Below are positions 31,108 through 62,756 of a stretch of DNA of 64,000 bases, piece by piece; position 1 is the stretch's first letter, and each line of letters begins with the position of its first letter. The translations under genes and the position numbers were made by a program. The stretch is from NCBI GenBank assembly GCA_003553905.1, contig PWEA01000005.1:7915-71914 (forward strand), in the 5' to 3' direction. Below the pieces are notes generated by a model. It was not told where the DNA came from. It saw nothing but the letters and a program-made list of their open reading frames with translations, and searched no databases. This stretch comes from Candidatus Aenigmatarchaeota archaeon. GTDB lineage: Archaea > Aenigmatarchaeota > Aenigmatarchaeia > PWEA01.

Positions 31108-31158
31108 TGTAAGCGAAAGGCTTAAAAAGTTTAAGGAGGAAAAGTAAGGTGTGAAAAG

Positions 31159-31653: not shown

Positions 31654-31665
31654 AAGGTGATATAA

Positions 31666-32268
31666 ATGTTTAATATAGCAAATGGTATGACTGCCTTGAT
31701 GGCGCAGACAGGACCAATCGACGAAGTATCACAGATAATCGGGATAGACTTCTTCTCAATGGTGCTTCCATGGCTTCTGACCTTCGCTATAGTATACGGA
31801 GTACTTTCACAGTTAGGTGATGGAGATGGACTACCCGAAAGTGATGCAGCCAGGGCGGTAATCGGAATAGTACTGGCATTTGTAATAGCACCTGTTCTTT
31901 CGCCTTATGTCATACAGCTCGCTGCGCTTTCAACCGGATTCGTAGCCTTGATCGCCGGAGTAATTCTGCTTTCAATATTCGTTCAGATAGCAGGCTTCGA
32001 AGGTGGTGGAGGTGGAAAGAAGTTCTTCGGGAAGTATCCGACATTAACAGGATTCACTGTCTTCGTACTCGCGGTATTGATTTTCATAGGATCAGGTGCA
32101 CATGAAGCCCTTGGTATAACAATCCCAGGATACATATCACAAAACTATCCGCTGTTGTTTTTCCTTGCATTCATGGTTATGATTGTACACTGGATGGTCA
32201 AGGGAGACGAAGACAACAAAAAAAGCGGCGGTAAACCAAAGCAACAAAGACCGAAACAACAGAATTAA
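31666..32268 (+). CDS. Membrane protein, tandem paralog family member
   Basis: LPWLLTFAIVYGVLSQLGDGDGLPESDAARAVIGIVLAFV, plus a Gly run and a basic tail. Confidence 0.55.
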   Translation: MFNIANGMTALMAQTGPIDEVSQIIGIDFFSMVLPWLLTFAIVYGVLSQLGDGDGLPESDAARAVIGIVLAFVIAPVLSPYVIQLAALSTGFVALIAGVILLSIFVQIAGFEGGGGGKKFFGKYPTLTGFTVFVLAVLIFIGSGAHEALGITIPGYISQNYPLLFFLAFMVMIVHWMVKGDEDNKKSGGKPKQQRPKQQN

Positions 32269-33578: not shown

Positions 33579-35861
33579 GTGGTTCAAATGCCATGTGATT
33601 ACGAATACAACCAAAAGGAAAATAAAATAGAAGTAAACTGCTCTGGATGCATCTACGGAAGTAGTGTAGCTGACTACGAGGAGTGTATGGCGAACACAAT
33701 CGATAAAATTCTTGAAGTAAAAGGAGTAGAATCGATTGTATTCAAAAACAGCCGTGAACACGAGTATCCGTATGAGCAGACAAAGCTCCTTGTAGAGATA
33801 GCCCAGGTTCTTAAGGATCTGACCAAAGACAAGGGTCTAAGGAAACTAAAGAAGCTAGATGTACCGGGCTGCAACAAATATTTCCGGGAAAAATATTCGG
33901 AGCTACAGAATATAATCCTCGAAGAACTGAGCAAGGACCCAATAGGTACGTACATACATCTCAAAAGAAAGATAAGGCATCTCAAGATCCAATTAAAGGA
34001 AAATAAGGGTGGTTCACAGAACGAGTGCAGAGAAAAGTACATGAACAAAATACTTATACCAATAAAGGACGAGATCGAGAACACGGGAATGATACAGGGG
34101 GTTAAAAACCAACTTTCCGGATATCGACCAGGCAGGAGAGACGCCTACAGAGAGCTTTTTTACCCTTCTGTACGACCAAACTTCATGCGGACAAAATACA
34201 TGAGACAAGCCCCCGAAGAAGGTAAGAAGGTAGAACATTATGATGTAGGAACTTCTGATGTAGATATATACAGACTGCCTGAAGAAACCAGGCCTCTATA
34301 CCACTTTTCCCCTCCCGAGTTCAAACTCGAGGAGGAAGAATATAAGATACTAGACGAGGCTCAGAGATATATCAGCGAGCATAGACCCGAAACTACCGAG
34401 TTTGCAGAGTCGAAGAGAACCAGGGAAGTTTTCACATCAATATGCAGGGACCTGGTGAAAGACATAGCGGATAATAAGAAAACTGTACTGGAAACCGATC
34501 AGGTCGAAAGACTCACAACCATACTAGGTAGATATACAGGTGGTTTGGGGATACTTGAAGCACTCCTGGAGGACAAAAGAATCCAAGACATATACATAAA
34601 CTCACCAATAGGAAACAAACCGATCTTCGTCAACCACGAAAAATATGGAGAATGCAAAACAAATATAATACCCACCCAAGACGATGCAGAAAGCTGGGCA
34701 ACAAAACTAAGACTTTCGAGTGGAAGACCATTGGACGAAGCCAATCCGGTTCTTGATGCATCCATAGAGGTACCCGGAGGAAGTGCAAGGATAACGGTCA
34801 TAGCTCCCACGCTTTCACCTGAAGGTATTGGTTTTGCTATAAGAAGACACAGAGAAGATCCATGGACATATCCACTGTACTTGAGACCGGATATAAACTA
34901 TATAAATCCACTTTTTGCAGGTCTCATGAGCTTCATAATCGATGGTGGACGTACGTTCCTCGTTGGGGGTGGAAGGGGTTCTGGAAAAACATCACTTCTC
35001 GGAGCCTCGATGCTTGAAATGAAGAGAGACTGGAGGATACTTACAGCAGAGGATACATTAGAGCTACCAGTCGAAAGGCTCAAAAGGCTTGACTACGATG
35101 CACAGAGATTAAAGTCAAGGTCTGTTATAACCCAGGTAGAAACCGAACTTCCTGCGTCGGAAGCAATACGAACGGCCCTTCGTCTGGGTGATTCAGCACT
35201 AGTTATAGGTGAAGTAAGGAGCACGGAAGCAAAGGCCCTCTACGAAGCCATGCGTATAGGAGCGATGGCTAAAACGGTCGCCGGTACTATACATGGTGAA
35301 TCAGCATACGGTCTTTTCGACCGTGTTGTAAACGACCTCGGAGTCCCAAAGACATCTTTCAAAGCTACAGACATCGTAGTTATATGCAACAGGATAAAGA
35401 GCGCATCCGGTCTCGAGGAAATAAGAAGAGTAACAAGTGTTACTGAAGTAAGAAAACACTGGTCCGATGATCCCAGGGCAGAGGATGGATTTGTTCCTCT
35501 TATGAAATATTCGGCAGAAGATGACGAGTTAAAACCGACCGACACTCTACTAAACGGTGAGTCAGAGGTTCTGAATAAGATATCTTCACAGGTCAAGGAC
35601 TGGGCAGGAAGGTGGGATAGGGTCTGGGAAAATATAGAGCTCAGGGCTAAGGTTAAAAAAGCCATAACCGACTATGCACTCGAAACAGGTGAAGAAGATC
35701 TAATGGAAGCCCCGTTTGTTGTCAAGAGCAACAGCAAGTTCCGCCTTATCATGGACGAGGTAAAAAAGAAGACAGGTTACATAGACCCGGATGAAACCTT
35801 CGATAAGTGGGAACAATGGCTCAAGGATCAGATAAAGACTGGTGAATTTAGGAATGTTTAA
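33579..35861 (+). CDS. Type II/IV secretion-system ATPase (FlaI/TadA/PilB/VirB11 family) with extended N-terminal region
   Basis: Walker A GGGRGSGKTSLLGA, Asp box ILTAEDTLEL, GEVRSTEA and a TIHGE His box. 760 aa from the GTG at 33579; the alternative ATG at 33588 would be leaderless. Confidence 0.8.
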   Translation: MVQMPCDYEYNQKENKIEVNCSGCIYGSSVADYEECMANTIDKILEVKGVESIVFKNSREHEYPYEQTKLLVEIAQVLKDLTKDKGLRKLKKLDVPGCNKYFREKYSELQNIILEELSKDPIGTYIHLKRKIRHLKIQLKENKGGSQNECREKYMNKILIPIKDEIENTGMIQGVKNQLSGYRPGRRDAYRELFYPSVRPNFMRTKYMRQAPEEGKKVEHYDVGTSDVDIYRLPEETRPLYHFSPPEFKLEEEEYKILDEAQRYISEHRPETTEFAESKRTREVFTSICRDLVKDIADNKKTVLETDQVERLTTILGRYTGGLGILEALLEDKRIQDIYINSPIGNKPIFVNHEKYGECKTNIIPTQDDAESWATKLRLSSGRPLDEANPVLDASIEVPGGSARITVIAPTLSPEGIGFAIRRHREDPWTYPLYLRPDINYINPLFAGLMSFIIDGGRTFLVGGGRGSGKTSLLGASMLEMKRDWRILTAEDTLELPVERLKRLDYDAQRLKSRSVITQVETELPASEAIRTALRLGDSALVIGEVRSTEAKALYEAMRIGAMAKTVAGTIHGESAYGLFDRVVNDLGVPKTSFKATDIVVICNRIKSASGLEEIRRVTSVTEVRKHWSDDPRAEDGFVPLMKYSAEDDELKPTDTLLNGESEVLNKISSQVKDWAGRWDRVWENIELRAKVKKAITDYALETGEEDLMEAPFVVKSNSKFRLIMDEVKKKTGYIDPDETFDKWEQWLKDQIKTGEFRNV

Positions 35862-37938
35862 GGGCGATAAGGATGACCGCAAAGAAGAGATAAAAAGACT
35901 TCTGGAAAGAAGAAACGAAGGACTCCGGATGCCCGAAAGCAGAAAAAGAACATTCACATCGAGGGAGTACGAAACATTCTTAAAAGAGGAACAGAAGCAG
36001 AGGAAACTATCACTTTACGAAAAACTATGTAATATTGCCGAAAATATAATAGTCGTAGAGCCGTCCGATGAAAAGAGGGAGGAGATGGAACGGTCAATAG
36101 ATATGACCTACATGAATATAACCCCTGAGGGGGCCTACTCTCTAGCCATTCTGTCCGGTATCGGCATCTTTGTCACTGCGATATTACTTATGGTACTGGG
36201 TCTTGCCTCGATAATATTTGGTCTCCTCATGTTTATACTGGGTGGTGTATCAATATACCTCCTCGCAGAATATCCAAATTCGGAGGCCAGGCTTTTCCGG
36301 GTCAAAGCTGCCGATCAGATTATGCTTGCTGTGATATACATGGTCATATACATGCGTACTTCTCCTAACCTCGAAGGTGCAGTTAAATTCACCGCCAAGC
36401 ATCTAGGAGAGCCCCTTTCACTTGATTTCAAAAAACTGCTCTGGGATGTAGAAACCCGAAACTATGTTTCGATGAGGGAAGCCCTTTCCGCCTACCTGGA
36501 AAAGTGGGAAGACAACAAAACCTTCGTGGAAGCTATACAGATAATAGAAGACTCGATGCAACAAGCCGGAGAAAAAAGAAAAAGAATGCTCAACGAAGCA
36601 ATAAACACGATGATGACAGGCTCAAGAGAGATGATGAAAAACTACTCAAACAAACTCGAACTTCCTATACTCGTAATACACGCCCTCGGTATAATGCTTC
36701 CTATCATGGTTCTGATAATGTTCCCTATAATAATGCTTATGCTTGAAGAAACTATCCGGCCTGCGTTTCTCATTCTGGGCTACAATGTTATACTACCGCT
36801 CATAATATATCTAACAGGAAAAAGAACGCTGGAGTACAGGCCGATGGGATTTTCTGAGCCTGACATATCAAAACATCCGGACCACATTCCCTCTGGAATG
36901 ATAAACATCGCAGGTAAGGAGATAAAGATATGGCCTATATCTGTTCTTCTGTCGGTTCCTGTGATAATTACCGGTATCTATCTGGTTAACTTCTACGCAG
37001 GTACAGATATATCAACTCAGCTCTACACGTCAATAATCATAACCATCGGAATAGCACTGGGTCCTTCGAGCTACTTCTACCTCGACTCCAGCGCTAAGCT
37101 CAAGATAAGGAAGGAGGTGAAGGATATCGAGGATGAATTTTCGGAGTCTCTTTTCTCACTGGGTAATATACTCAAGCTGGGTAAGCCAATGGAGAGGGCC
37201 ATGGAAGAAGCTGCTGTAAAAAATAAGGATATGGACATATCGAAGATGTTCGATATAGTCGTAAACAATATCAAAAAGGGTGGGATGAACATCAGGAAGG
37301 CTTTTTTCGATGATGAATACGGTGCAGTGTGGCATTATCCTTCGACACTCATAATATCCGTCATGAAAATCGTCATAGATGCGACAAAAAAGGGTTCCGA
37401 TATTGTCTCTAGGTCAACTATATCAATATCAAAGTATCTACAACAGCTCGATGAGATAGAAGAAGACCTGAAAAATATGCTCTCTTCGGAGACTACTTCT
37501 ATGCAGTTCCTGGGAACGTTTCTTGGACCCTTTGTGGCAGGTGTTTCTGTGGCCATGGCTGCTATAATGATATCAATATTCCAAGGTGTGGGTGGTTCAT
37601 TGGATGCACTGGCAGGAACCGGAACCTCACCCGGTGTTGGAGGTCTAGGTGGGATGGGACTCAATGAAGGCCTAGTAGGTGGATGGGGTTCAGCAGAAAA
37701 TATGATACCCATATCATGGATACAGGTTGTCGTAGGTCTCTATGCTATCCAGACATCCTACCTTCTTTCTATGCTAACATCCGGCATAGAAAACGGTCCC
37801 GGTGACCAAATAAAGAAAAGACAGTCCGCAGCAATTATGATAATGATAGGTGTAATAGTCTACGGTGTTTCAATTGCTGTGGTTTGGCAAATATTCGGAG
37901 GGCAGATATCTGAACTTCTAGCAGCAACCATAAACTGA
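35842..37938 (+). CDS. FlaJ/TadC-like polytopic membrane platform protein
   Basis: 698 aa. Cytoplasmic helical domains alternate with clusters of TM helices, the two-T2SS_F-domain layout. Overlaps the ATPase by 20 nt, suggesting translational coupling. Confidence 0.7.
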   Translation: MNLGMFKGDKDDRKEEIKRLLERRNEGLRMPESRKRTFTSREYETFLKEEQKQRKLSLYEKLCNIAENIIVVEPSDEKREEMERSIDMTYMNITPEGAYSLAILSGIGIFVTAILLMVLGLASIIFGLLMFILGGVSIYLLAEYPNSEARLFRVKAADQIMLAVIYMVIYMRTSPNLEGAVKFTAKHLGEPLSLDFKKLLWDVETRNYVSMREALSAYLEKWEDNKTFVEAIQIIEDSMQQAGEKRKRMLNEAINTMMTGSREMMKNYSNKLELPILVIHALGIMLPIMVLIMFPIIMLMLEETIRPAFLILGYNVILPLIIYLTGKRTLEYRPMGFSEPDISKHPDHIPSGMINIAGKEIKIWPISVLLSVPVIITGIYLVNFYAGTDISTQLYTSIIITIGIALGPSSYFYLDSSAKLKIRKEVKDIEDEFSESLFSLGNILKLGKPMERAMEEAAVKNKDMDISKMFDIVVNNIKKGGMNIRKAFFDDEYGAVWHYPSTLIISVMKIVIDATKKGSDIVSRSTISISKYLQQLDEIEEDLKNMLSSETTSMQFLGTFLGPFVAGVSVAMAAIMISIFQGVGGSLDALAGTGTSPGVGGLGGMGLNEGLVGGWGSAENMIPISWIQVVVGLYAIQTSYLLSMLTSGIENGPGDQIKKRQSAAIMIMIGVIVYGVSIAVVWQIFGGQISELLAATIN

Positions 37939-39286: not shown

Positions 39287-39307
39287 TATCTTGAATTTGT
39301 GATGTAA

Positions 39308-40408: not shown

Positions 40409-40447
40409 AAAAGTTAAAAACTAAACGAAAACCTATTAAATGATAAT

Positions 40448-40561
40448 ATGGAAGTAAGTATGTCTGTCTTGCTCTGGGTGATTGTAGCCTTTGCTCTGTT
40501 TGTATTTGTAGTAATATTTACCGGTATGTTTTTCGCCGACACGTTTGGAATTTTAATATAA
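40448..40561 (+). CDS. Possible 37-aa hydrophobic micro-protein
   Basis: MEVSMSVLLWVIVAFALFVFVVIFTGMFFADTFGILI is a single TM helix lying between two pilin genes, below the ORF-track cut-off. Confidence 0.2.
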   Translation: MEVSMSVLLWVIVAFALFVFVVIFTGMFFADTFGILI

Positions 40562-40572
40562 TCAAGGATACT

Positions 40573-41910: not shown

Positions 41911-42093
41911 ATGAATACGGATTCAAAAAGCCTCTTTTCCAGAGGTGAAATAAGTATACAGGCCCTGGTAGTGATAATTCTAATGTTGATAGGGATCATA
42001 ATCATTGTTATAATATCATCGGGCGTCGGTGACTTTGGAGGAGATGCGTCTTCGACTATAATGGAATATTTAGCAGATGCTATAGGTGCATAA
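41911..42093 (+). CDS. Short pilin-like protein (60 aa)
   Basis: SLFSRG then EISIQALVVIILMLIGIIIIVI. Almost entirely the signal/helix segment, so a candidate structural pilin. Confidence 0.5.
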   Translation: MNTDSKSLFSRGEISIQALVVIILMLIGIIIIVIISSGVGDFGGDASSTIMEYLADAIGA

Positions 42094-42407: not shown

Positions 42408-43124
42408 ATGAACGTAATCAACAAAAAAGGTTCAAGATCACAGAGTGAGTTCATATTTCTTGCAATAAAGGCAGTGATAGGTATCTTGGTTATAGGAATT
42501 GTTGCCTTGAGTGTTAGGGGCATGGAAACAGGCTGCAGTACACATGACGAAAATCCAACGGCATGTATAAGAAATACCGAATGCAGGCCTGCAGTTAGAA
42601 GAAAGAGAAACATATTCACGTTCTATATTGATCCTGCTCGTACCATAGACCTAATCTACCATACAAAAATAACCGGTGATATAGAATGCCGAGACGCGAT
42701 AAGGACTCCTAACAACAGATACCACGCCGCAGAGGATGCTCAGTGTGTATGTCCTGTTGGATGGGAAGTAATTTTAGACAAGGATGATCAGTACTACGGA
42801 GTCTGCAGACTACCAGGAACTAACGACTATCACCCATGCGAGTATCCACCAGACGGCGAACAGCAAGAAGCAGAATTCAAAGACATGTGTGAAGATGGAG
42901 ACAGATACCACGGAGAAGTCTGGATCGACGGAACAGATGAGGAAGCTCCAAATATGTGCTGCGATGATGGAGATACAAAGGAATGTGACTCCGATAACAT
43001 AGACGAAGAATGTGGCGATTTGGTTTGTATTGAAATAGAGGTCGAGGACGAAGACGGAGAAGAGGAAGAAACCACTTTCTGGATAGAAGAAGAAAGCGTA
43101 CCTGATATAGAATACTTCCTTTAA
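42408..43124 (+). CDS. Class III signal-peptide protein with Cys-rich acidic domain (family 2, paralog A)
   Basis: MNVINKKG then SRSQSEFIFLAIKAVIGILVIGIVAL. Shared with the next gene: ETGCSTHDENPTACIRNTECRPAV, GDIECRDAIRTPNNRYHAAEDAQCVCPVGWE, YYGVC, YHGEVWIDG..MCCDDGDTKECD. Confidence 0.7.
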   Translation: MNVINKKGSRSQSEFIFLAIKAVIGILVIGIVALSVRGMETGCSTHDENPTACIRNTECRPAVRRKRNIFTFYIDPARTIDLIYHTKITGDIECRDAIRTPNNRYHAAEDAQCVCPVGWEVILDKDDQYYGVCRLPGTNDYHPCEYPPDGEQQEAEFKDMCEDGDRYHGEVWIDGTDEEAPNMCCDDGDTKECDSDNIDEECGDLVCIEIEVEDEDGEEEETTFWIEEESVPDIEYFL

Positions 43125-43151
43125 AATACACAAAATAAAAGATGAAGCGGA

Positions 43152-43802
43152 ATGTTTTCAAAAAAAGGTACTGCTAAATCGCAGGAAGAAACACTTTGGT
43201 TTATAATCAAGATAGCTATAATGTTGATAGGAATGGTAGTTTTGATTGTTTCTTTACTCGAGATGGAGGCAGGCTGCAGTAGACACGATGAAAATCCATC
43301 GGCATGTGTAAGCGATGAAAACTGCAGACCCGCAGTTAAAACATTTGACCTAGGATGGGGTTTATATGGTTTCTCTCAAATCGAAGTAGTGGGTGAGATC
43401 GAATGCCGGGAATCTGTGAGAAAACCCAATACAAGATATCATGCAGCCCAAGATGGAAAATGCGTATGCCCTGGTTTCTGGAACGAAATCATGGACAGGG
43501 ACCATGACTACTTTGGTGTGTGTTATACTGAATATGACGGAGAAGAAATGTACTATCCATGCCAGTACGGCCTGGATGTTCAGGCTGAGGAAATAAAAGA
43601 CAGATGCGATACCGACAACGGTCTTAGAATGCACGGAGAAGTATGGGGCTCCGGTTGGAATGTTCCAGATAGATGCTGCGACGATGGTGAAGTAAAGAAA
43701 TGTGGGATAGATAAAAGAGGTGAAACTTGTGCAGACCATACCTGTAAATCCGGTCCAGCAATGCATGATGTTGTTATAGTCAACTACTATTGGCAGCCAT
43801 AA
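43152..43802 (+). CDS. Class III signal-peptide protein with Cys-rich domain (family 2, paralog B)
   Basis: MFSKKG then TAKSQEETLWFIIKIAIMLIGMVVLIV. EAGCSRHDENPSACVSDENCRPAV, GEIECRESVRKPNTRYHAAQDGKCVCPGFWNE, YFGVC, MHGEVWGSG..RCCDDGEVKKCG. Confidence 0.7.
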   Translation: MFSKKGTAKSQEETLWFIIKIAIMLIGMVVLIVSLLEMEAGCSRHDENPSACVSDENCRPAVKTFDLGWGLYGFSQIEVVGEIECRESVRKPNTRYHAAQDGKCVCPGFWNEIMDRDHDYFGVCYTEYDGEEMYYPCQYGLDVQAEEIKDRCDTDNGLRMHGEVWGSGWNVPDRCCDDGEVKKCGIDKRGETCADHTCKSGPAMHDVVIVNYYWQP

Positions 43803-47758: not shown

Positions 47759-48070
47759 ATGTTAAGTAAAAAGGGTATGGACGCGATAAGAATAATAAGG
47801 GTATTTATAATAACATTACTCATTCTCTTTGCTCTTCTTGCCCTCTGGGTAGGCACAGGAGATGCAGGTCTAACGGAAATAGAGTTCGATGGAAAGATGA
47901 GGATAGCCTGTAATAGATTTGAAAACAGGGGTTGTTGTAGAAGCTACGACGAAGAAGATCCCGGACAGTGTGCTGTAGATAAGGTATGGGAAGGCTACGA
48001 CGAAGAAGAAATGGACGAAGAGCTTATAGAAAGGCTGGAAGAAGTCGATTGGGAACAAAGGTGTTGTTGA
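47759..48070 (+). CDS. Class III signal-peptide Cys-rich small protein (family 3)
   Basis: MLSKKG then MDAIRIIRVFIITLLILFALLAL. IACNRFENRGCCRSYDEEDPGQCAVD..EQRCC. Confidence 0.55.
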   Translation: MLSKKGMDAIRIIRVFIITLLILFALLALWVGTGDAGLTEIEFDGKMRIACNRFENRGCCRSYDEEDPGQCAVDKVWEGYDEEEMDEELIERLEEVDWEQRCC

Positions 48071-48071
48071 A

Positions 48072-48323
48072 ATGAAAGAAAAGGGTATATCGCTTGCGAT
48101 AAGGACCGTTGTAATCTTGATTATCTCTATACTCATACTACTTGCAGTTATCACCATGTTTACAGATGTATGGGATGTAAGTCCCTTTGAAGACACTAAA
48201 GGAAATATTTCCGAGGAATACGGACCGGATTGGGGTAATGGGGAAGAAAATGGCCAAGAAAGTTACAATACCTTTTCTTTAAGCAGTCTATCCGAAACCA
48301 CACATTCACTGTCTAGTCTTTAA
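48072..48323 (+). CDS. Class III signal-peptide (pilin-like) protein
   Basis: MKEKG then ISLAIRTVVILIISILILLAVITMF. 83 aa, S-rich tail. Confidence 0.55.
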   Translation: MKEKGISLAIRTVVILIISILILLAVITMFTDVWDVSPFEDTKGNISEEYGPDWGNGEENGQESYNTFSLSSLSETTHSLSSL

Positions 48324-52709: not shown

Positions 52710-53732
52710 ATGGGTGTGAATATTGCGGATCTCGTTGAACCTGAAGAATCTTCTTTAGATTCATTTAAAGGCAGAGCCTTTGCTATCGATGCTCTTAACA
52801 TGCTCTATCAGTTCCTCTCTATAATACGACAACCAGATGGCGAACCATTGAAAGACTCAAATGGAAGGATAACATCCCATCTTTCGGGCCTTTTCTACAG
52901 AACCACAAAGCTCGTAGAACATGAGATTAGACCCTTCTATGTTTTTGATGGAAAGCCTCCTGAATTTAAGGAGAGTGTAAACAACGAGAGAAGGGAAAAA
53001 AGAGAGGAAGCAAGGAAGAAATACAAGGATGCACTGAAGAGAGGTAATATAGAGAAAGCAGAAAAATATGCTAAACAATCAACAACGGTCCAAAAAGAGA
53101 TGGTAAACCAGTCTAAAAATCTACTGGATGCCATGGGAATCCCGTGGGTACAAGCACCAAGCGAAGGTGAGGCCCAGGCCGCACATATGACAAAAAAAGG
53201 TGATGCATGGGCGGTAGGAAGCCAAGATTTTGATGCACTTCTGTTTGGTTCACCAATACTCGTGAGGAATCTAACTATAACAGGAAAAAGAAAGCTCCCC
53301 AATAAGCAACAATACAAGAAGATTAGACCAGAGAAGCTGGATCTCGAGAAAATACTGAACAAAAACGGCATAAGTAGAGAACAACTAATTATAATGGGAA
53401 TACTTGTAGGGACTGACTACACTCCAGGCGGTGTAAAGGGTGTAGGCCCTAAGAACGCGTTAAAGCTTGTAAAAAAACACGGAGATCTACGCTCTGTAAT
53501 CAATCAAGTTGATTGGCCTTTCGAAAAGGACCCAGAAGATATATTAAACCTATTCATGAACCCGTCTGTGACCGATGATTATAAAATCGAATGGCGGGAT
53601 CCCAGTAAAGAAAAGATCAAGAGCTTTCTGTGTGATAGACATGATTTTTCCGAAGACAGAATAAAAAAGCCCATTGAAAGATTACAAAGGGACAGAAACA
53701 AAGGAACACAGTCAAGACTCGACACATTCTAA
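52710..53732 (+). CDS. fen: Flap endonuclease 1
   Basis: MGVNIADL..AIDALNMLYQFLS..TSHLSGLFYRTTKLVEHEIRPFYVFDGKPPEFK is canonical FEN1. Confidence 0.9.
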   Translation: MGVNIADLVEPEESSLDSFKGRAFAIDALNMLYQFLSIIRQPDGEPLKDSNGRITSHLSGLFYRTTKLVEHEIRPFYVFDGKPPEFKESVNNERREKREEARKKYKDALKRGNIEKAEKYAKQSTTVQKEMVNQSKNLLDAMGIPWVQAPSEGEAQAAHMTKKGDAWAVGSQDFDALLFGSPILVRNLTITGKRKLPNKQQYKKIRPEKLDLEKILNKNGISREQLIIMGILVGTDYTPGGVKGVGPKNALKLVKKHGDLRSVINQVDWPFEKDPEDILNLFMNPSVTDDYKIEWRDPSKEKIKSFLCDRHDFSEDRIKKPIERLQRDRNKGTQSRLDTF

Positions 53733-54971
53733 GCTGACATCAATCCCAAGGAGTTCTTCAGTATGTTTCACGAGTTCATCCTCCAGTTCATCTATCGTAT
53801 TCTCAAGATCCTTCTGTTTCTGCTTCGTTTTTTCGAGTCTATCCCTCATATCTTCTATATCCTCACTTTTTCTCTTTATCTTTCCACTAATATTCTCTTT
53901 GGGCCCCTCTGATAAAAGATTCTCGATTGATTCTTCTAGTTTGTTTCTTTCCTCTTCTAAATCATAAATGGTTTCAACAGAGGACTTGATTTTGTTTATA
54001 TCAACAGCATCGAGTTCATTTTCAAGTCTTTTTGCTTCTGAGTCATCGAAGTCCAGATTCCTGTCAGCAAGCTTTTCATCAAGTTTCTCAGTTGTTTTTA
54101 ATAAGAACGAAAGGCCTTCGTCTTTTTTGGTAGCCAGAACAGGCTTGGTGATATAATGTTCAAGAAGCTCTTCCTCTCCTGAAAAAAAACCAAAATATCT
54201 TAGCTTCTTAAGACCTCTTTTTAGTGGCGATATACTACTGCGTATCCTGCTCTTCTCCTTTTCCATTTTCTTCTCTACATCCCCCATCCTTTGGCGCTTT
54301 TCTTCTATGGCTTCTCTATCTTCAGATTTTTCTATCTCCTCCAACTTTTTATGAAGTTTTTCTCTTTCTTCGAGGCTGTCCTCCAACTCGATTTTTATCT
54401 TTTCATGCCTATCTGAAAGTTCCGAAAGCCTTTCGATCTTTTGATTGAGTTCCTTGTATAAATCAACTATTTCGACGGTCTTCTGTAGGTCTTCATCTAT
54501 ATCAAGAGATCTTTCTAGTTCTCTTATTGAATTAACTATTCCCTTTGTAACGTCTGGCTGTGCCTTATCAAGTACAACCAAACTCCTCTTTATATTATCT
54601 GAAACCTTATCGAGCTCCGACGATCTATCCTCCAGGAAGCTTTGCAATTGTTTGTATCCTCTTCCATCGGGTATAGTAAACTTATCGATGAAACTCTGAA
54701 GATGCTTTATCAAAACCTTTCTGTTTGATTGGGCCATTTTCTTAAGCCTGGGTGCCATTTCATCGGGAAGATCCTTTTCCTCGAACTCTACCAAAGCCTT
54801 CTGCAAGCCTTCCATAGAATTCTTTATTTGGGAGTATACTTCGTTCTGATCGCTCCAGTCGAAACCATCCAAACCCTTGAGCTGATTCTCAAACCAACAG
54901 AGGAAATCTTGAAACTTAACCGTTTTCTCTTCCTTTTTTTTGTCAGTAAAAAACCCAAATACAGAAGACAT
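53712..54971 (-). CDS. Large coiled-coil protein
   Basis: 419 aa, dominated by heptad K/E/L-rich segments. Confidence 0.45.
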   Translation of the reverse strand: MSSVFGFFTDKKKEEKTVKFQDFLCWFENQLKGLDGFDWSDQNEVYSQIKNSMEGLQKALVEFEEKDLPDEMAPRLKKMAQSNRKVLIKHLQSFIDKFTIPDGRGYKQLQSFLEDRSSELDKVSDNIKRSLVVLDKAQPDVTKGIVNSIRELERSLDIDEDLQKTVEIVDLYKELNQKIERLSELSDRHEKIKIELEDSLEEREKLHKKLEEIEKSEDREAIEEKRQRMGDVEKKMEKEKSRIRSSISPLKRGLKKLRYFGFFSGEEELLEHYITKPVLATKKDEGLSFLLKTTEKLDEKLADRNLDFDDSEAKRLENELDAVDINKIKSSVETIYDLEEERNKLEESIENLLSEGPKENISGKIKRKSEDIEDMRDRLEKTKQKQKDLENTIDELEDELVKHTEELLGIDVSLECVES

Positions 54972-54994
54972 ATAAAACCTATTTTATTTTAAAC

Positions 54995-55642
54995 TCAAAA
55001 ACCTTTGGTTCCTCTGAGCTTAACGAAACGATAACCCCTTTCTTTCTTTATGAGATCTAAACCGTCGTCTTTCTTCTCAAAAACAACAAGACTGTGTAAA
55101 ACTATTTCTCCGAGGGGAGTAACCAGCCTCCCTCCTACCTTAAGCTGTTCAACCCATTCGTCCTGAATCTCTGGAGAAACGGCAGTACAGATTATACTAT
55201 CATATGGAGCATATTTTTGTAGACCGATCGACCCATCCCCAAAAACAACCTCCACGTTGTCTATACCTGCCTTATTGATATTTTCTCTGGCGTTCTTTGC
55301 CAGCCCTTCAATTAGTTCAACTGTATAAACTTTTCCCGAACTTCCAACAAGACGAGAAAGTACAGCAGACTGCCATCCGGACCCAGCACCTATTTCAAGT
55401 ATTCTGTCACCCTCCTTGACGTCAAGAAACTCTGTCATCTTTGCAACAACAGACGGTTGGGAAATAGTTTGACCATGACCTATGGAAAGAGGTGAGTCGG
55501 TGTATGCCTTTTCTTTGTCTTTACTTGAAACAAAAAGATGCCTCGGAACCTTTCTCATAGCCTTCTCAACACGTTCAGAAGTAAGATTGCCCTTGGCCTT
55601 CATGGTTTCGATTAAAGAATCTATATCCTCTTTTTTGTTCAT
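54995..55642 (-). CDS. pcm: Protein-L-isoaspartate O-methyltransferase
   Basis: GQTISQPSVVAKMTEFL..ILEIGAGSGWQSAVL is canonical PIMT. Confidence 0.85.
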   Translation of the reverse strand: MNKKEDIDSLIETMKAKGNLTSERVEKAMRKVPRHLFVSSKDKEKAYTDSPLSIGHGQTISQPSVVAKMTEFLDVKEGDRILEIGAGSGWQSAVLSRLVGSSGKVYTVELIEGLAKNARENINKAGIDNVEVVFGDGSIGLQKYAPYDSIICTAVSPEIQDEWVEQLKVGGRLVTPLGEIVLHSLVVFEKKDDGLDLIKKERGYRFVKLRGTKGF

Positions 55643-55680
55643 ACAAAACCTTTTATTTATCGCTTCACATAAAGTTTTCT

Positions 55681-56535
55681 ATGCCGATGCCCGACGTCGA
55701 TGAGACTGTAAAAAAGATAAAGAACCTTGAAATACAGGGAGCACAGTCAATAGCAAAGGAAAGTCTTAAAGTTCTTTCGAAGATAGTCGAAGAAGAAGGG
55801 TTCGGTGAAAAATTCGAAGAAGCAGCAGAAAGATTGAAAAATGCGCGTCCCACGGGAGTATCAGCACATAACTGCATAAACTTTGTTAAAAGAAGGGGAG
55901 AGATAGAAGCCATAGACGCAACCCTAGACTATCTAAACACCGCAAAAAACGAAGCGGGTAAAGTAGTCGCAGATATTGTAAAGGACGAATCCGTAATACT
56001 GACACATTGTCACTCTTCTGCTGTTATAGCAGCTTTTAGGAGTATGCTGGATATGGACAGAAACTTCCGTGTGATAGTTACAGAAACCGAGCCAAAGCTA
56101 CAAGGCGTTAAAACAGCAAAAAAGCTCAATGAGATGAACATACCTGTCAATTATATAGTAGATGCAGCAGCCGGGCTATATATGTGGGCTGCAGACTACG
56201 TGTTTGTTGGCGTGGATTCGATAAGGCCTTCTGGTGTCCTGAACAAGATAGGAACATATATGCTATCCCTTGCTGCGAAGGAGGATCCTGATACGGAGTT
56301 TTACTTCATAGCTACAAAGGACAAATTCGACTACGACAACTTCTCAACACTGGAAGAGAGATCGCCTGATGAAATACGGGAACACGAATACCTTGAGAAA
56401 GAACACGAACTGGTACTAGAAAATCCTGCCTTTGATATGACACCCTGGGCAAATATAGACAAACTAATAACGGAAGACGGTGTAATGAAAAAACATGAAA
56501 TAATAGAAGAGTTAAAAGGAAGGTTCACAATATAG
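55681..56535 (+). CDS. Ribose-1,5-bisphosphate isomerase (eIF-2B alpha/beta/delta family, e2b2)
   Basis: eIF-2B-family fold signature (ILTHCHSSAVI, Rossmann-like segments). Immediately upstream of type III RuBisCO. Confidence 0.7.
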   Translation: MPMPDVDETVKKIKNLEIQGAQSIAKESLKVLSKIVEEEGFGEKFEEAAERLKNARPTGVSAHNCINFVKRRGEIEAIDATLDYLNTAKNEAGKVVADIVKDESVILTHCHSSAVIAAFRSMLDMDRNFRVIVTETEPKLQGVKTAKKLNEMNIPVNYIVDAAAGLYMWAADYVFVGVDSIRPSGVLNKIGTYMLSLAAKEDPDTEFYFIATKDKFDYDNFSTLEERSPDEIREHEYLEKEHELVLENPAFDMTPWANIDKLITEDGVMKKHEIIEELKGRFTI

Positions 56536-56553
56536 ATAGAGAGGGATGAATTT

Positions 56554-57816
56554 ATGAACTTCATAGACAAAGAATACGAACCAAAAGAAGACGATCTTAT
56601 CTGTCTTTTTAGAATAGAACCATCAAAGAACTACACGATCAAAGAAGCAGCAGCCAATGTCGCCAAGGAATCCAGTGTAGGAACATGGACACACATCGGA
56701 ACAGTCAATGAAAGAGCAAAGAGGATAAAGGCGAGGGTATATGATATAGATGATCCCTACGTAAAAATAGCCTATCCGAAGGAACTCTTCGAACTCAGCA
56801 GCATACCACAACTGCTGTCTTCGGTTGGAGGAAACATATTTGGAATGAAACTACTCGATAGTCTACGGCTAGAAGACATAAGATTTCCGAAGAAAATGTT
56901 AGAAAAGTTCCATGGACCACAGGTAGGTATAGACGGAATAAGAAACCTCTTTTCTGTATATGATAGACCAATGCTCGGAACTATAGTCAAACCCAAGCTC
57001 GGATTGGGCCCAAAAGAACATGCCAAGGTTGCTTACAAGGCATGGAAGGGTGGTCTTGATATAGTAAAGGATGATGAAAATCTTACCTCGATGAGCTTCA
57101 ACGGTTTCAAAAAAAGGGTAGACGAAACAATGAAACTCAAGGAAAGGGCCGAAAAGGAAACAGGCGAAAAGAAAGAATATATGGGAAACATAACGGCGCC
57201 TGTATCAGAAATGAAGAAGAGAGCAGACTACCTCATAGGAAAGGGCAGCAACTACGTTATGATAGACATAATAACAATAGGTTGGAGTGCACTACAGGAG
57301 ATGCGTGAATACCTCGTAGGAAAGAATGTAGTCATACACTGTCACAGAGCAGGTCATGCCGCATTCACCAGAAGCAAAAAACATGGTATCAGCATGCTTA
57401 CGGTGGCTAAACTAACAAGACTCATAGGTGGTGACCAACTACATATAGGGACAGCTGGTATCGGTAAGATGGAAGGAGACCAAAAAAAGGTCCTGAAAAT
57501 AGAGGAAGCTATAGAATCAATGGACGTATCCGAAGAAGGCCGCAGGTTGGATCAGAACTGGGGTAATATAGACAAAACATTTGCCGTTGCATCCGGTGGT
57601 CTTCATCCAGGAGGACTTCCTGGCTTAGTGGATAAAATGGGCAAGGATATAATAGCCCAGTTTGGCGGAGGATGCCATGGACACCCCGATGGTACAGAAG
57701 CCGGAGCCAGAGCCATAAGACAAGCCTGTAGAGCTGTTATGAATGGAAGAAGTCTAGAAGAAGCATCGATGGAAAACAAAGAACTGAAAAAAGCGCTAGA
57801 CAAGTGGGAAAAATGA
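56554..57816 (+). CDS. rbcL: Ribulose-bisphosphate carboxylase large subunit, type III
   Basis: GTIVKPKLGL (carbamylated-Lys region), GGLDIVKDDENLTSMSF, and a C-terminal GGGCHGHPDG-like loop. 420 aa. Confidence 0.9.
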   Translation: MNFIDKEYEPKEDDLICLFRIEPSKNYTIKEAAANVAKESSVGTWTHIGTVNERAKRIKARVYDIDDPYVKIAYPKELFELSSIPQLLSSVGGNIFGMKLLDSLRLEDIRFPKKMLEKFHGPQVGIDGIRNLFSVYDRPMLGTIVKPKLGLGPKEHAKVAYKAWKGGLDIVKDDENLTSMSFNGFKKRVDETMKLKERAEKETGEKKEYMGNITAPVSEMKKRADYLIGKGSNYVMIDIITIGWSALQEMREYLVGKNVVIHCHRAGHAAFTRSKKHGISMLTVAKLTRLIGGDQLHIGTAGIGKMEGDQKKVLKIEEAIESMDVSEEGRRLDQNWGNIDKTFAVASGGLHPGGLPGLVDKMGKDIIAQFGGGCHGHPDGTEAGARAIRQACRAVMNGRSLEEASMENKELKKALDKWEK

Positions 57817-58070
57817 TAAATATAGGATGGCTAGGAGCTATTTTACTGCTAGCAGCATGGCTACCCGAAACCATAACCACAATGAAAACAGAAAGCCTAG
57901 AAGCACTGGACCCAAAATTCATTTTCTTTAGTCTGCTTGGATCCATGTCACTTGCACTACATTCCTACAGGATAGGAGATCTTGCTTTTCTATTTATGAA
58001 TACGATCTTGTCGATTGTGGTAGCCATTGAGCTGGTTGTTTATTTTTATAAATCAAAGTCCACCGTTTAG
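57804..58070 (+). CDS. Small membrane protein (uncertain)
   Basis: 88 aa, three hydrophobic helices. Overlaps the rbcL end by 13 nt. Could be spurious. Confidence 0.3.
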   Translation: MGKMINIGWLGAILLLAAWLPETITTMKTESLEALDPKFIFFSLLGSMSLALHSYRIGDLAFLFMNTILSIVVAIELVVYFYKSKSTV

Positions 58071-58080
58071 TTGTGTTAAA

Positions 58081-59556
58081 ATGGAAGCAAAGGTAAAGAC
58101 TCTGGATATAAGGGCAGGAAAGCCTGTGGTAATTCTCAACAACAGGGAAGCCATAGAACGTTCTATATTCCTTGGCGACAGAATATGTATAAAGCACGAG
58201 GACACAGAAGTCATGGCCATAGTTGATACCTCAAACGAGGTCCCGGAAGGTCATATAGTACTGTTCGATGAAACAAACGAAGAACTCGGGGCCGAGGAAG
58301 GAAAAACCGTCATCGTAAACAGCATACCAAAACCTGATTCTATAGACTATATCAAGAAAAAGGTAGAAGGTAAGGATCTATCATATGATGAAACCCATGA
58401 AATAGTAAAGGATGCAGTAGACTTCCGTTTAACTGATTCCGAACTGATGGCATATACTGTAGCTATAGATATGTCCGACTTCTCACTTGATGAAGCAAGG
58501 GATCTTACAAAGGCGATGGTAGATACCGGTGAAGAGATAGATATAAAAAATGCATTGGACAAACACTGCATAGGCGGTGTCCCAGGAAACAGAACAACAC
58601 CGATAATAGTTTCTATAATCGCAGCAGCTGGTTATAAGATACCGAAAACCTCGTCAAGAGCGATAACCTCACCGGCAGGAACCGCAGACACAATGGAAGT
58701 CATCACAGACGTAGAACATTCTTTGAAGGAGATCGAAGATATAGTTGACAAAACCAACGGATGCTTCTCGTGGGGCGGAGCACTAAATCTCGCACCGGCC
58801 GACGATGAATTCATAAGAGTCAGGGATTCCCTCAATCTGGATCCACTGGAGCAGCTCCTTTCATCTGTTCTGGCAAAGAAAAAGGCTGTTGGGGCCGAAA
58901 CTGTGCTTATAGATATACCCATGGGAGACGGATCAAAGATAAAAAATTCCAAAGAAGCAAGTAAGCTATCTGAATATTTCGAAAAGCTGGGGAGTGAACT
59001 GGGAATGGATGTTTTCACTCTTGTATCAGATGGCTCCAATCCGATCGGAAATGGGATAGGCCCGGCGCTCGAGGCAAGGGACGTTTTAAAAATACTGAAA
59101 TCCGGGGGTAAAGAAGGACCTAAGGATCTAACAGAAAAATCTATTAAGATGGCCGACCTTCTACTTGAAGAAGTTGGTTCAGATAAAAGTGCAGAAAGGA
59201 TACTAACAAGTGGAAAAGCTTACAACAAGTTCAAAGATATAGTCGAGGCCCAGGGAGGTGGAGTTATGGACCCTGATGAAGTAGAACTTGCCGAAAATCA
59301 TCAGATAGTTCGATCTCAGAAAAGAGGGCGTGTAAAGGATCTGGACAATAAAATAGTGAGTAAAATAACAAAGGCAACGGGCTGTTCTAAGGACAAAAAA
59401 TCAGGACTATACCTACATAAGAAAAAAGATGATCCCGTTGAAAAGGGTGAAAAAATTATGACAGTCTATTCTGAAAGTCCTGATAAACTTAAAAAAGCAC
59501 TGGAAATTGCGGAAGAAAATAAGGTCTTTACATTCAAATCACTTCTTTCAGAATAA
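58081..59556 (+). CDS. deoA: AMP phosphorylase (thymidine phosphorylase family)
   Basis: MEAKVKTLDIRAGKPVVILNNREA N-terminal domain and GGVPGNRTTPIIVSIIAAAG glycosyl-transferase-family-3 motifs. Start is set at the internal ATG, 18 codons into the track ORF. Confidence 0.8.
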   Translation: MEAKVKTLDIRAGKPVVILNNREAIERSIFLGDRICIKHEDTEVMAIVDTSNEVPEGHIVLFDETNEELGAEEGKTVIVNSIPKPDSIDYIKKKVEGKDLSYDETHEIVKDAVDFRLTDSELMAYTVAIDMSDFSLDEARDLTKAMVDTGEEIDIKNALDKHCIGGVPGNRTTPIIVSIIAAAGYKIPKTSSRAITSPAGTADTMEVITDVEHSLKEIEDIVDKTNGCFSWGGALNLAPADDEFIRVRDSLNLDPLEQLLSSVLAKKKAVGAETVLIDIPMGDGSKIKNSKEASKLSEYFEKLGSELGMDVFTLVSDGSNPIGNGIGPALEARDVLKILKSGGKEGPKDLTEKSIKMADLLLEEVGSDKSAERILTSGKAYNKFKDIVEAQGGGVMDPDEVELAENHQIVRSQKRGRVKDLDNKIVSKITKATGCSKDKKSGLYLHKKKDDPVEKGEKIMTVYSESPDKLKKALEIAEENKVFTFKSLLSE

Positions 59557-59894: not shown

Positions 59895-60016
59895 CTCCGT
59901 TTATTCTGTTGTTTTGGTCTTTGAATTTCTAGTACTTTTGAACACTAGATCTCACTCTGTCCATTTGATTAACCTGTAAAAGTATTTAAAAGTTTGCAGA
60001 AGGTGAAAACAAAAAA

Positions 60017-60343
60017 TCAGCATGCAGGACATTCACTTGGCCTGGGAACATATTCCGAACAGACGCGTTCTCTGCCCCCTATATCTACACAAACGTCGCC
60101 TTCCATATCACCACATTCGCTCATACCACTGAGCTCGGGATCCCAGCTGTCTTCACCACAGTGTCTATAGGTTACGACGGGGCTGCAGCATGAGTTTATA
60201 ACTGTTCTATCCTCCACGGGACCTGTGTCGAATCCACCGGTAAAGAAGGCTATAACGGCTAAAAGAACTATAACGGCTACAGCAAGGATTACAAGCATGT
60301 TGATAGGAAGAGATATTCCTTTATCCGTTGTCATGTTTAACAC
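60017..60343 (-). CDS. Class III signal-peptide pilin with Cys-rich C-terminal domain (family 4)
   Basis: MTTDKG then ISLPINMLVILAVAVIVLLAVIAFF. CCSPVVTYRHCGE..C..C..C..CPAC. Confidence 0.65.
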   Translation of the reverse strand: MLNMTTDKGISLPINMLVILAVAVIVLLAVIAFFTGGFDTGPVEDRTVINSCCSPVVTYRHCGEDSWDPELSGMSECGDMEGDVCVDIGGRERVCSEYVPRPSECPAC

Positions 60344-60397
60344 TACCTATAGTTTATCTGAACTACTTAAAAACTTGTTGTCGAGAAACGCTGATCT

Positions 60398-60733
60398 CTA
60401 ACAGGCAGGGCAGTTTTGTGGACCGCCAGGAATAACATTACTACAGTCGTGCCATTCGCCACCGACCTGTACACATACCTCGGCAGTGGAAACAGGTGAA
60501 TCATCGGGAGCATCACAATCAAGGGCTGTTAGTTCCTCTGTCCAACTGGTTTCTGCACAGTGACCAAAGGTTGCAACAGGACTACAACATCTATTTATGA
60601 CCGTCTGTTCATCTACAGCACCTGTCTCGAAGCCTCCCATAAAGAAAGCGACTATGGCTAAAAGAACTATAACGGCTACAGCAAGGATTACAAGCATGTT
60701 GATAGGAAGGGTAACACCTTTTTTTGCAGCCAT
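60398..60733 (-). CDS. Class III signal-peptide pilin with Cys-rich C-terminal domain (family 4)
   Basis: MAAKKG then VTLPINMLVILAVAVIVLLAIVAFF, near-identical to the paralog. CCSPVATFGHCAE..C..C..C..CPAC. Confidence 0.65.
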   Translation of the reverse strand: MAAKKGVTLPINMLVILAVAVIVLLAIVAFFMGGFETGAVDEQTVINRCCSPVATFGHCAETSWTEELTALDCDAPDDSPVSTAEVCVQVGGEWHDCSNVIPGGPQNCPAC

Positions 60734-60851
60734 ACAATCACTAACTTAAATGTATCAACTCCTTTATTTAAAAGTTTCCCTCTGTATCATGGGCAACTAG
60801 GTATAAAGGGCTGGTTTTGAAAGTTAAATACCTTGAAAATAATAATATATC

Positions 60852-61037
60852 TGTGGCGGGAGGTCAGGGGTCTAGCCTGTCTTAGTAAGGCGTGGAGCGT
60901 GCGTTCCATAAAGTCCTTGAGACTGGAGGGGCGTATGTGAGACGAACTGTAAAACACACGGGAGAAATTCGCGAATCGCGCCGTTTGGACAAGGCAACGG
61001 CAAGGAAGGTAGCCATGACCCTAATAACTTCCCCCAC
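60852..61037. ncRNA. Candidate structured ncRNA (SRP-RNA-like motifs; identity unresolved)
   Basis: ~186-nt GC-rich island after an A/T-rich promoter-like stretch (TATAAAGG at 60801..60808, AAATAATAATATAT at 60836..60849). Terminal helix GUGGCGGGAG / CUUCCCCCAC. 5' GGUCAGG and 3' GGAAGGUAGCCA segments resemble SRP RNA helix-8 consensus. The only ORFs here (60872..61162 minus, 60892..61083 plus) are low-complexity and mutually overlapping. Confidence 0.3.
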
Positions 61038-62096: not shown

Positions 62097-62756
62097 ATGC
62101 TCAAGGAAAAAATCGACCGTTTCTACCGAAAACAGGAAAAAAATAGACGTAGAGACTACTTTTATGCTTCCGAAGTAACCGACTGCAAGAGAAAAATATA
62201 CTTAAAGATGAAAGGAGCCGACAAAGAAGATCTTGATCCGCAGACAAGACGAAAGTTTGAAAGAGGAGATATGATACACCAAAGGCTTGTGTCTGCTCTC
62301 TATTCAGCAGGGGTAGTTACAGCATCGGAGGTTAGAATGCCGGATCAGTCCATGTTCCATGGACGAGCAGACGCAATCGTTTCGATAAACAACGAAAACT
62401 ATATAGTTGAAATCAAATCGGCAAGTCCGTATAGTTTCAAAAATCTAAGCGAACCCAAAGAATCGTGGAAAAAACAGCTCCAGATCTATCTAAACCATTT
62501 TGGTATAGACAAGGGGATAATACTCGTAGAATGCAAAGGAACACAGAAGCTTAAGGAGTTCAGTATAGAAAAAGACGAAGGAGTTTTGGAAGAGCTTCAG
62601 GAAGAGTTCGAAAAGCTCCTGGATATGATAAAAAAAGATGTAATACCCAAAAAGCCTGACAAGGGCGACTGGAAGTTCGATAAGTGTAGATACTGCCTTT
62701 ATAAGGAAGCATGTGAAGAATCCAGCAATAATTTAACAGGCTTCACAGGTGAGTAG
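62097..62756 (+). CDS. Cas4-like PD-(D/E)xK nuclease with 4-Cys cluster (DUF83/RecB-nuclease family)
   Basis: N-terminal YASEVTDCKRK (first Cys), GRADAIV..YIVEIKS (D..E.K catalytic triad) and C-terminal CRYCLYKEAC (three Cys). No cas genes or repeats nearby. Confidence 0.55.
   Translation: MLKEKIDRFYRKQEKNRRRDYFYASEVTDCKRKIYLKMKGADKEDLDPQTRRKFERGDMIHQRLVSALYSAGVVTASEVRMPDQSMFHGRADAIVSINNENYIVEIKSASPYSFKNLSEPKESWKKQLQIYLNHFGIDKGIILVECKGTQKLKEFSIEKDEGVLEELQEEFEKLLDMIKKDVIPKKPDKGDWKFDKCRYCLYKEACEESSNNLTGFTGE

Follow-up and report, generated by a model that had tools for sequence, protein, structure and literature searches.

What kind of protein do two small tandem genes encode that lie beside the gene for Alba, about 12 kb from a type IV pilus locus, in the genome of a Candidatus Aenigmatarchaeota archaeon? 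The genes belong to a 64,000-nt stretch of contig PWEA01000005.1 (GenBank assembly GCA_003553905.1, positions 7,915 to 71,914 of the forward strand), here called the window. A sequence-only reading of this DNA had described the products as near-identical Cys-rich class III pilins that differ only in a short exposed segment under diversifying selection and that may be the major subunits assembled by the distant locus. The question has a wider bearing because DPANN archaea are thought to depend on contact with host cells, for which type IV pili are prime candidates. DPANN pilins have been described as genomic "dark matter" (PMC6393860). The explanation that we favor, with moderate confidence, is that the pair are type IV pilin-like, filament-forming subunits of a family specific to the Aenigmatarchaeota.

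Both genes are on the minus strand, and we refer to the upstream copy as geneB and to the downstream copy as geneA:

60398..60733, minus strand: geneB, ATG start, 111-aa precursor beginning MAAKKG and continuing, past the predicted cleavage point, with VTLPINMLVILAVAVIVLLAIVAFF, then an acidic eight-Cys head ending in CPAC
60017..60334, minus strand: geneA, 105-aa precursor from the ATG at 60334, beginning MTTDKG and continuing with ISLPINML..., and an eight-Cys head ending in CPAC

These open reading frames (ORFs) are real genes, as had been proposed, and their products are homologous (BLASTP E = 3e-41, 54% identity). The geneA frame can be extended to a GTG at 60343 (60017..60343, 108 aa), yet the ATG at 60334 is the likelier start, because it agrees with the public gene call, with the MSTDKG start of an orthologue and with a TATA-box spacing like that of geneB. 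The geneA product is the public protein P0003, whose orthologue is L005_dn. Independent contigs from JGI and ENA encode a protein identical to the geneB product (P0001), and identical proteins are found on the soda-lake sediment contigs JGI 3300027784 and ENA ERZ27266004. JGI 3300027784 and 3300000557 derive from soda-lake sediment of the Kulunda type. The predicted mature geneB protein has 105 aa and an isoelectric point (pI) of about 4.0; both heads are acidic (pI about 4.0 to 4.1), and N-x-S/T sequons are absent from both proteins.

The term near-identical holds for the N-terminus, where 24 of 31 positions of signal plus helix agree, but not for the proteins as a whole. Identity falls to 18 of 28 positions over residues 32 to 59 and to 18 of 52, with two indels, from residue 60 to the end, so that confining the differences to a short exposed segment was an overstatement. 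All eight Cys residues of each protein align (CC, C, C, C, C and CPAC); the dot spacing of the Cys framework drawn earlier is schematic and not literal.

A family of small Cys-rich proteins with a class III signal

Both precursors carry the class III signal pattern, [KRDE][GA] after a short charged N-terminal region and then a hydrophobic stretch of at least about 20 residues, and the N-terminal motif quoted in the sequence-only reading is exact in both. The KGIS of geneA is the same as the predicted PibD site of Sulfolobus acidocaldarius UpsB (PMC4371748). Within the 25-residue hydrophobic domain (H-domain), 23 positions are identical between geneA and geneB, and identity across the clade is about 85%.

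A word-indexed search found 12 close relatives only. When 1.84 billion cluster representatives were searched exhaustively with a profile, 723 matched at E ≤ 1e-3, which is the size of the family in clusters at 50% identity, and 84 of them matched at E ≤ 1e-10. These proteins are nearly all 95 to 135 aa long and align through their N-terminal 60 to 80 positions. Every member with a named source comes from the Aenigmatarchaeota or from an unclassified archaeon, and the nearest genome-resolved relatives are Candidatus Aenigmatarchaeota metagenome-assembled genomes (MAGs).

We computed the family signature on 147 members. Lys occupies position −2 in 145 of them and Gly position −1 in 141 (Gly or Ala in 146); there follow I/L/V/M at +1, S/E/A/T at +2, Leu at +3, Pro at +4 (144/147) and I/V at +5. 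At +6 stands Asn (124 members), Glu (18) or Asp (3), together 145 of the 147. The KG lies 3 to 6 residues from the N-terminus in most members, and the roughly 20 hydrophobic residues after the motif are almost invariant even between members that are 40% identical overall. Near-invariance of this kind would be expected of a filament core, unlike an ordinary signal peptide or membrane anchor.

This pattern bears on the possibility that the pair is unrelated to pili and consists of small membrane-anchored or secreted Cys-rich proteins, such as toxin- or bacteriocin-like effectors, signaling peptides or metal-binding proteins. The hydrophobic N-terminus would then be an uncleaved anchor or an unusual signal peptide, but a Sec h-region would be far shorter and less conserved than the near-invariant helix of 25 residues that follows so soon after the start. 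In favor of such a role are occasional weak Pfam matches to conotoxin- or toxin-like models among the members and the arrangement and evolution of the genes: tandem pairs or larger arrays are usual in other lineages (loci L014, L016, L017, L018 and L019), and tandem arrays with fast-evolving Cys-rich C-termini are typical of secreted effectors too. On the other side, no relatives turned up among phage genomes (tblastn) or in PHROGs. Taking these points with those given below, we consider a role unrelated to pili very improbable.

The number of Cys residues is even in 142 of the 147 members, most often six, which argues for paired extracytoplasmic disulfides. Four are conserved in >90% of members (geneB positions 50, 59, 108 and 111), and in the soda-lake clade two extra residues, Cys73 and Cys88 in geneB numbering, occur either both or not at all, which would be expected if they were bonded to each other. 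The conserved C-terminal Cys residues (CxC or CxxC) might possibly form inter-subunit bonds or bind metal instead of forming intramolecular disulfides.

Scans of both proteins and the 147 members against Pfam, NCBIfam and PHROGs identified no curated family, only sub-threshold matches to Pilin_N (PF07790). Among the 147, no Pfam or NCBIfam model matched consistently at E ≤ 0.01, and the precomputed Pfam column was empty for all. The family is thus large yet uncurated, and its signature, KG-x-x-L-P-[IV]-[NE] followed by 20 hydrophobic residues and four conserved Cys, could seed a Pfam or arCOG model. Pilin_N was nonetheless the most frequent weak Pfam match (29/147 members at E ≤ 1, best E 0.0065), and it aligns over the hydrophobic helix. 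A profile search of the PDB gave only nonsignificant matches (E 0.2 to 1.0), four of the five best being archaeal pilins or filament subunits. The lack of a significant match to any pilin family or structure is what a role unrelated to pili would predict, but the weak Pfam and PDB matches point consistently to archaeal pilins.

Two AlphaFold2 models, built from 12 and 102 sequences (predicted local distance difference test scores [pLDDT] of 82 and 86), agree in layout: a helix at residues 11 to 32, a Gly-Gly break, a second helix at 38 to 56 and a small head that contains a short helix and a single beta-hairpin, which lies at residues 87 to 96 in the geneB model (pLDDT 86). The predicted layout resembles a long broken alpha-1 helix with a mini-head.

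Pilus machinery, promoters and the proposed role

The type IV pilus locus of the window ends at 48323, about 12 kb from the pair, which agrees with the distance given earlier. Four of its genes matter here:

33579..35861, plus strand: type IV pilus assembly ATPase (PilB/FlaI-like), Pfam T2SSE E = 1e-15
35842..37938, plus strand: polytopic platform protein (TadC/PilC-like), 698 aa, without a Pfam match of its own
47759..48070, plus strand: 103-aa ORF, a distant relative of the family, with KG, H-domain and six Cys ending in CC
48072..48323, plus strand: 83-aa ORF, MKEKGISLAIRTVVILIISILILLAVITMF..., with an N-terminus related to the family

About 12 ORFs of this locus, up to 48323, encode a short charged stretch, KG and a hydrophobic helix, so that the family and the prepilin-like ORFs of the pilus locus have in common both the KG motif and its spacing from the N-terminus. 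Two of these ORFs are also related to the family in sequence. When aligned with the family profile by hhalign, the 103-aa product reached a probability of 94% over 62 columns, with two conserved Cys aligned, and the 83-aa product 97% over 36 columns. Among the controls, two other prepilin-like ORFs gave 4% and 30% and a multipass membrane protein gave 0.7%. The KGISLAIET subtype of the 83-aa ORF recurs in L014, L016 and L017.

A closer association appears in another Aenigmatarchaeota lineage. Locus L018 carries two family genes divergently oriented to, and about 500 nt away from, genes for an ATPase 46% identical to that of the window over its full length and for a platform protein 36% identical to that of the window, also over its full length and with a faint T2SSF match. 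It is through L018 that the family is associated with a type IV pilus ATPase and platform protein; the pair in the window itself is 12 kb away from its own. Together with the relatives at the end of the window locus, this linkage counts against a role unrelated to pili. The designation class III pilins gains support from the convergence of KG motif, locus relatives and L018 linkage, even though the Pilin_N cut-off is not reached, and we consider it highly probable that the two proteins are type IV pilin-like subunits handled by pilus machinery.

The DNA around the pair carries candidate expression signals, some of them read directly from the sequence:

60765..60777, minus strand: BRE/TATA-like box (B recognition element and TATA box) AAACTTTTAAATA, about 37 nt upstream of the geneB ATG
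60363..60376, minus strand: TATA-like box AAGTTTTTAAGTAG, about 38 nt upstream of the geneA ATG
60005..60016, minus strand: T-rich run TTTTTTGTTTT, immediately past the geneA stop codon
59604..59894, minus strand: Alba chromatin/RNA-binding protein gene (Pfam Alba E = 6.6e-22), the next gene downstream of geneA

The 13-mer AAACTTTTAAATA has exactly two copies in the 64 kb, the other (59983-59995) preceding Alba, and alignment shows that the geneB box is kept in orthologous loci. GeneA probably has its own promoter, and the T-rich run is likely an archaeal terminator. The position of the pair beside Alba, on the same strand and upstream of it, is as the sequence-only reading had it. Among 67 genes, the effective number of codons (Nc) is lowest for Alba (35.3), fourth lowest for geneB (43.5) and 10th lowest for geneA (45.9), Nc being noisy for genes of 105 to 111 codons. 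The Alba-identical promoter 13-mer and the Nc values hint weakly at high expression of the pair.

A role as the major subunit is plausible by analogy with characterized systems. Small singleton or tandem pilin genes outside type IV pilus operons have proved to encode major pilin families (Makarova et al. 2016, PMC4858521). The pair, 12 kb off the locus and with a conserved H-domain, shows this stand-alone, tandem arrangement, a predictor of major pilins and not a proof (PMC4858521). Because they are small, lie outside the machinery operon, have their own strong-looking promoters and are tandem paralogues, the two proteins are the best candidates for the major subunit.

We infer cleavage, filament assembly, major-subunit status and disulfides, and the series of steps would run as follows. 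The precursor would insert in the membrane with its short basic N-terminus (M-x-x-K/D-K-G) inside, and a class III signal (prepilin) peptidase would cleave past the KG. The mature protein, about 100 aa, would then be extracted and polymerized by the ATPase and platform protein encoded at 33.6 to 37.9 kb. The invariant hydrophobic helix, LPINMLVILAVAVIVLLA..., would form the filament core, and the second helix and the small acidic head, with three to four disulfides, would form the surface. The two copies are probably interchangeable in the core, with conversion repeatedly homogenizing stretches of their DNA, and the loop between Cys59 and the hairpin would be free to vary in sequence and length.

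Several observations weigh against this account. The Pilin_N matches of the two proteins score 14.4 and 11.5 bits (E = 0.074 and 0.57) against a curated cut-off of 25.2 bits, which none of the 147 members reaches. Foldseek found no similar solved structure for either model, so that the head, as predicted, is not the Ig-like (immunoglobulin-like) beta-sandwich of characterized archaeal pilins. The codon-bias signal is weak in genes so short. No ORF of at least 60 aa in the 64-kb window matched a regular expression for the GxGD motif of prepilin peptidases, a gene for which could be located in another part of the genome. The pair sits among housekeeping genes, 12 kb from the pilus machinery, surroundings that would also suit a role unrelated to pili. 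Finally, the pilus locus has other small class III-like candidates for the major subunit, at 41911-42093, 47759-48070 and 48072-48323.

These last ORFs give substance to a second alternative, that the pair are minor pilins, pseudopilins or surface-anchored accessory proteins that are processed by the prepilin peptidase while the filament is built from another small subunit, such as one of those three. Several small ORFs of the main locus have KG and a hydrophobic stretch, two of them related to the family, and many of the proteins that FlaFind flags in known systems are minor pilins or non-pilins (PMC4371748). Extreme H-domain conservation and a stand-alone tandem arrangement are nevertheless the known signature of major pilins (PMC4858521, PMC4371748). 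The genes also probably have their own promoters, one with a box identical to that of Alba, and each of the Aenigmatarchaeota loci examined contains family genes, in many cases two to four of them. We therefore regard an accessory role as unlikely, and we put the stronger claim, that the pair are filament-forming subunits, at an even chance.

The pilus locus has two further features. Large prepilin-like proteins encoded at 37988-41850 and 42408-43802 (plus strand) fall into two paralogous groups, of 432, 366 and 425 aa and of 238 and 216 aa, both rich in conserved Cys (for example MGCYCGV and CRxxC). Cys richness thus belongs to the whole pilus system and not to the small pair alone. Directly upstream of the locus, at 30049-32268 (plus strand), lie genes for four tandem paralogous membrane proteins of 159 to 200 aa, none with a Pfam match; the last three share LPWLLT-x-A-x-V-x-G-x-L.

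Gene conversion, selection and the variable loop

The N-terminal similarity of the pair extends to the DNA, in a tract of 54 nt:

60656..60709, minus strand: tract in geneB, encoding LPINMLVILAVAVIVLLA, every base identical to the geneA tract
60257..60310, minus strand: partner tract in geneA

Inside the tract, none of the 15 synonymous sites differs between geneA and geneB, whereas elsewhere the proportion of synonymous sites that differ (pS) is about 0.71. An identical run of 54 nt was never reached in 20,000 codon-shuffled permutations (p < 5e-5). Orthologues differ from the tract at 5 to 7 positions in locus L011, which belongs to a sister genome (MAG T1Sed10_130), at 10 to 16 in other typical copies and at 30 in the divergent L009_up. 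Since the paralogues are 0 to 2 differences apart and the orthologues 5 to 7, the copies have undergone concerted evolution by gene conversion.

Two other sources of the identity were considered and ruled out. Functional constraint at the nucleotide level is contradicted by the 5 to 16 positions, many of them synonymous, at which orthologues differ. An assembly artifact is contradicted by the occurrence of the same pair on independent JGI and ENA contigs and by the presence of a different tract in L011.

The conversion is patchy. In L011, the two copies have a near-identical N-terminus, strongly divergent codons 38 to 58 and then a 112-nt identical run across the head, a pattern which indicates that the downstream copy acquired an upstream-type head. 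In L005 and L009, traces of recent conversion are few or absent. Because geneA is orthologous to the downstream copy of L005, the duplication is older than both lineages. Mosaic gene conversion keeps the helix-coding DNA identical between the copies in the window, and the pair is a clean natural example of this process between tandem pilin genes.

Diversifying selection on the exposed part had been proposed together with a way of detecting it, the ratio of nonsynonymous to synonymous divergence (dN/dS) between the two copies. We calculated this ratio, and it carries no information because synonymous sites are saturated outside the 54-nt tract (pS about 0.7). A usable, if short, comparison is that of geneB with its L011 orthologue (6001-6342), for which pS is 0.37 and overall dN/dS 0.27, with values of 0.06 to 0.17 in the N-terminal parts and 0.47 in the head; overall, head values lie between 0.35 and 0.47. 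Between the window and L011, flanking genes have a pS of 0.72 to 0.77 and a dN/dS of 0.06 to 0.07, and Alba has a pS of 0.51 and a dN/dS of 0.01. In no comparison or segment did dN/dS exceed 1. At synonymous sites, geneB has diverged about half as much as the flanking genes, and less than Alba, which could result from codon bias or from recent exchange between co-occurring lineages.

A variable exposed segment does exist in homologues, as the sequence-only reading expected. The loop between the third Cys (Cys59) and the beta-hairpin ranges from 14 to 33 residues across the clade, has a mean pairwise identity of 34% and holds nearly all of the indels. This hypervariability, and the position of the head as the fastest-evolving part, well above the N-terminal parts and the neighboring genes, would suit positive, diversifying selection. 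Relaxed constraint explains a fast, indel-prone head equally well, and the absence of any segment with dN/dS above 1 leaves the claim unsupported as it was worded. In L011, moreover, the heads have become almost identical through conversion, so head divergence is not kept everywhere. The question rests on about 10 sequences: the scans for strain-level variants returned five loci from metagenomes, all already known or incomplete, and three from genomes, and a strain-level set was not recovered. That head differences reflect diversifying selection rather than relaxed constraint with patchy conversion is possible, if doubtful; this alternative concerns the mode of evolution only.

A more speculative idea, which we think improbable, is that the tandem copies serve as an exchange system in which short conversion tracts shuffle head and loop segments between expressed pilin genes, possibly between co-occurring lineages; the halved synonymous divergence of geneB from the sister genome would fit such exchange between lineages. 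If the idea were true, the archaeon would have a changing, disulfide-stapled pilus surface for host attachment or virus evasion, with a fold unlike solved structures.

Neighboring elements and comparison with known pilin systems

Synteny of Alba with family genes is seen in loci L001 to L012 and also in the distant loci L014 and L016. Family genes flank Alba in L014 (5750-8784; 110 aa, 110 aa, Alba, 110 aa, 107 aa) and in L016 (6879-9061; 109 aa, Alba, 148 aa, 154 aa), two distant Aenigmatarchaeota contigs on which the neighbors other than Alba differ. Alba is absent within 8 kb of family genes in the distant loci L015, L017, L018 and L019, and a gene for FEN-1 (XPG) lies near family genes in most loci. 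The linkage of Alba and the family may be ancestral synteny or a common high-expression neighborhood, and Alba is probably functionally outside the pilin pair.

Between the gene for a CBS-domain protein and geneB lies a conserved noncoding element of about 170 nt (60857-61030, plus strand) with its own conserved TTAAATA box at about 60826-60834 and a T-run downstream. It is 90% identical to its counterpart in L011, a comparison in which the flanking genes have reached saturation at synonymous sites, and 74 to 84% identical in other loci of the soda-lake clade. RNAalifold favored the plus strand (−41.3 kcal/mol, nine pairs with compensatory changes). A covariance model of the element matched in the soda-lake clade only, and an Rfam search returned only noise at E ≤ 10. 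The element is probably an unclassified small RNA gene.

Farther from the pair, an archaeal adenosine monophosphate (AMP) salvage module occupies 53712-59556. Its AMP phosphorylase (58027/58075-59556) was scanned directly, and the RuBisCO large subunit (56554-57816) and the IF-2B-family ribose-1,5-bisphosphate isomerase (55681-56535) were assigned from equal-length syntenic orthologues with precomputed Pfam matches. A Cas4-like PD-(D/E)XK nuclease gene (62097-62756, plus strand; Pfam Cas_Cas4 E = 1.2e-8) is syntenic across the clade, and neither a CRISPR array nor a further cas gene was noticed near it. In L015 (4394-7930) and L016 (4618-6765), a conserved cluster immediately precedes a family gene. 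The cluster encodes small proteins with class III-like signals and a predicted peptidoglycan hydrolase of very large size (Amidase_2, SLT and Peptidase_M23, 1178 aa; SLT, 715 aa). Such an enzyme is unexpected in an archaeon and hints that bacterial cell walls may be attacked.

The family is a new family of a known kind of protein. Its architecture and genomic logic follow the paradigms of archaeal major pilins, and no current view is overturned. As a phylum-wide family of Cys-rich proteins of about 100 aa, it supplies the best candidates for the Aenigmatarchaeota pilus fiber and gives concrete targets for proteomics and cryo-electron microscopy of DPANN pili. The closest analogues in function and genomic logic are PilA1 to PilA6 of Haloferax volcanii and EpdE of Methanococcus maripaludis; unlike these, the family is restricted to a single DPANN phylum.

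Haloferax volcanii PilA1 to PilA6 are adhesion pilins and PibD substrates with a conserved H-domain (Esquivel et al. 2013, reviewed in PMC4371748). The window pair are likewise small paralogous pilin-like proteins with a nearly fully conserved H-domain and divergent heads, encoded away from the pilB/pilC operon. They differ in that PilA1 to PilA6 belong to Pfam Pilin_N (DUF1628), while the window proteins fall below its cut-off, and in the processing motif, which is KG before the cleavage point and xxLPxN after it in the window family and (R/D)A before and VSPVIG after it in PilA1 to PilA6. Further differences are the predicted head of the window proteins, a small Cys-rich alpha/beta domain without N-glycosylation sequons, and the tandem arrangement of copies homogenized by gene conversion.

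EpdE (MMP1685, arCOG06620), a very small pilin, has its gene outside the pilus locus; mass spectrometry identified it as the major Epd subunit (PMC4371748, PMC4858521). The window proteins share with it their very small size, a gene outside the pilus locus and a processing motif that starts with KG, but EpdE has the EppA-type Gln at +1 (KGQI), where the window family has I/L/V/M. EpdE is not known to be Cys-rich or to be related in sequence to the window family.

Bacterial systems offer two further parallels. Like type IVa pilins (PilA/PilE), the window proteins are predicted to have a long broken helix of about 50 residues at the N-terminus, followed by a small head, and a disulfide close to the C-terminus. 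A conserved polar or acidic residue early in the helix is found in both, E5 in the bacterial proteins and N/E at +6 in the window family; homology does not extend beyond this general architecture. As in gonococcal pilE/pilS, gene conversion moves segments between pilin copies. Unlike pilE/pilS, both copies in the window are full length with a start codon and a TATA-like box, rather than one expression locus with silent cassettes, and the conversion seen homogenizes the copies, which sets the pair apart from antigenic variation of the pilE/pilS type.

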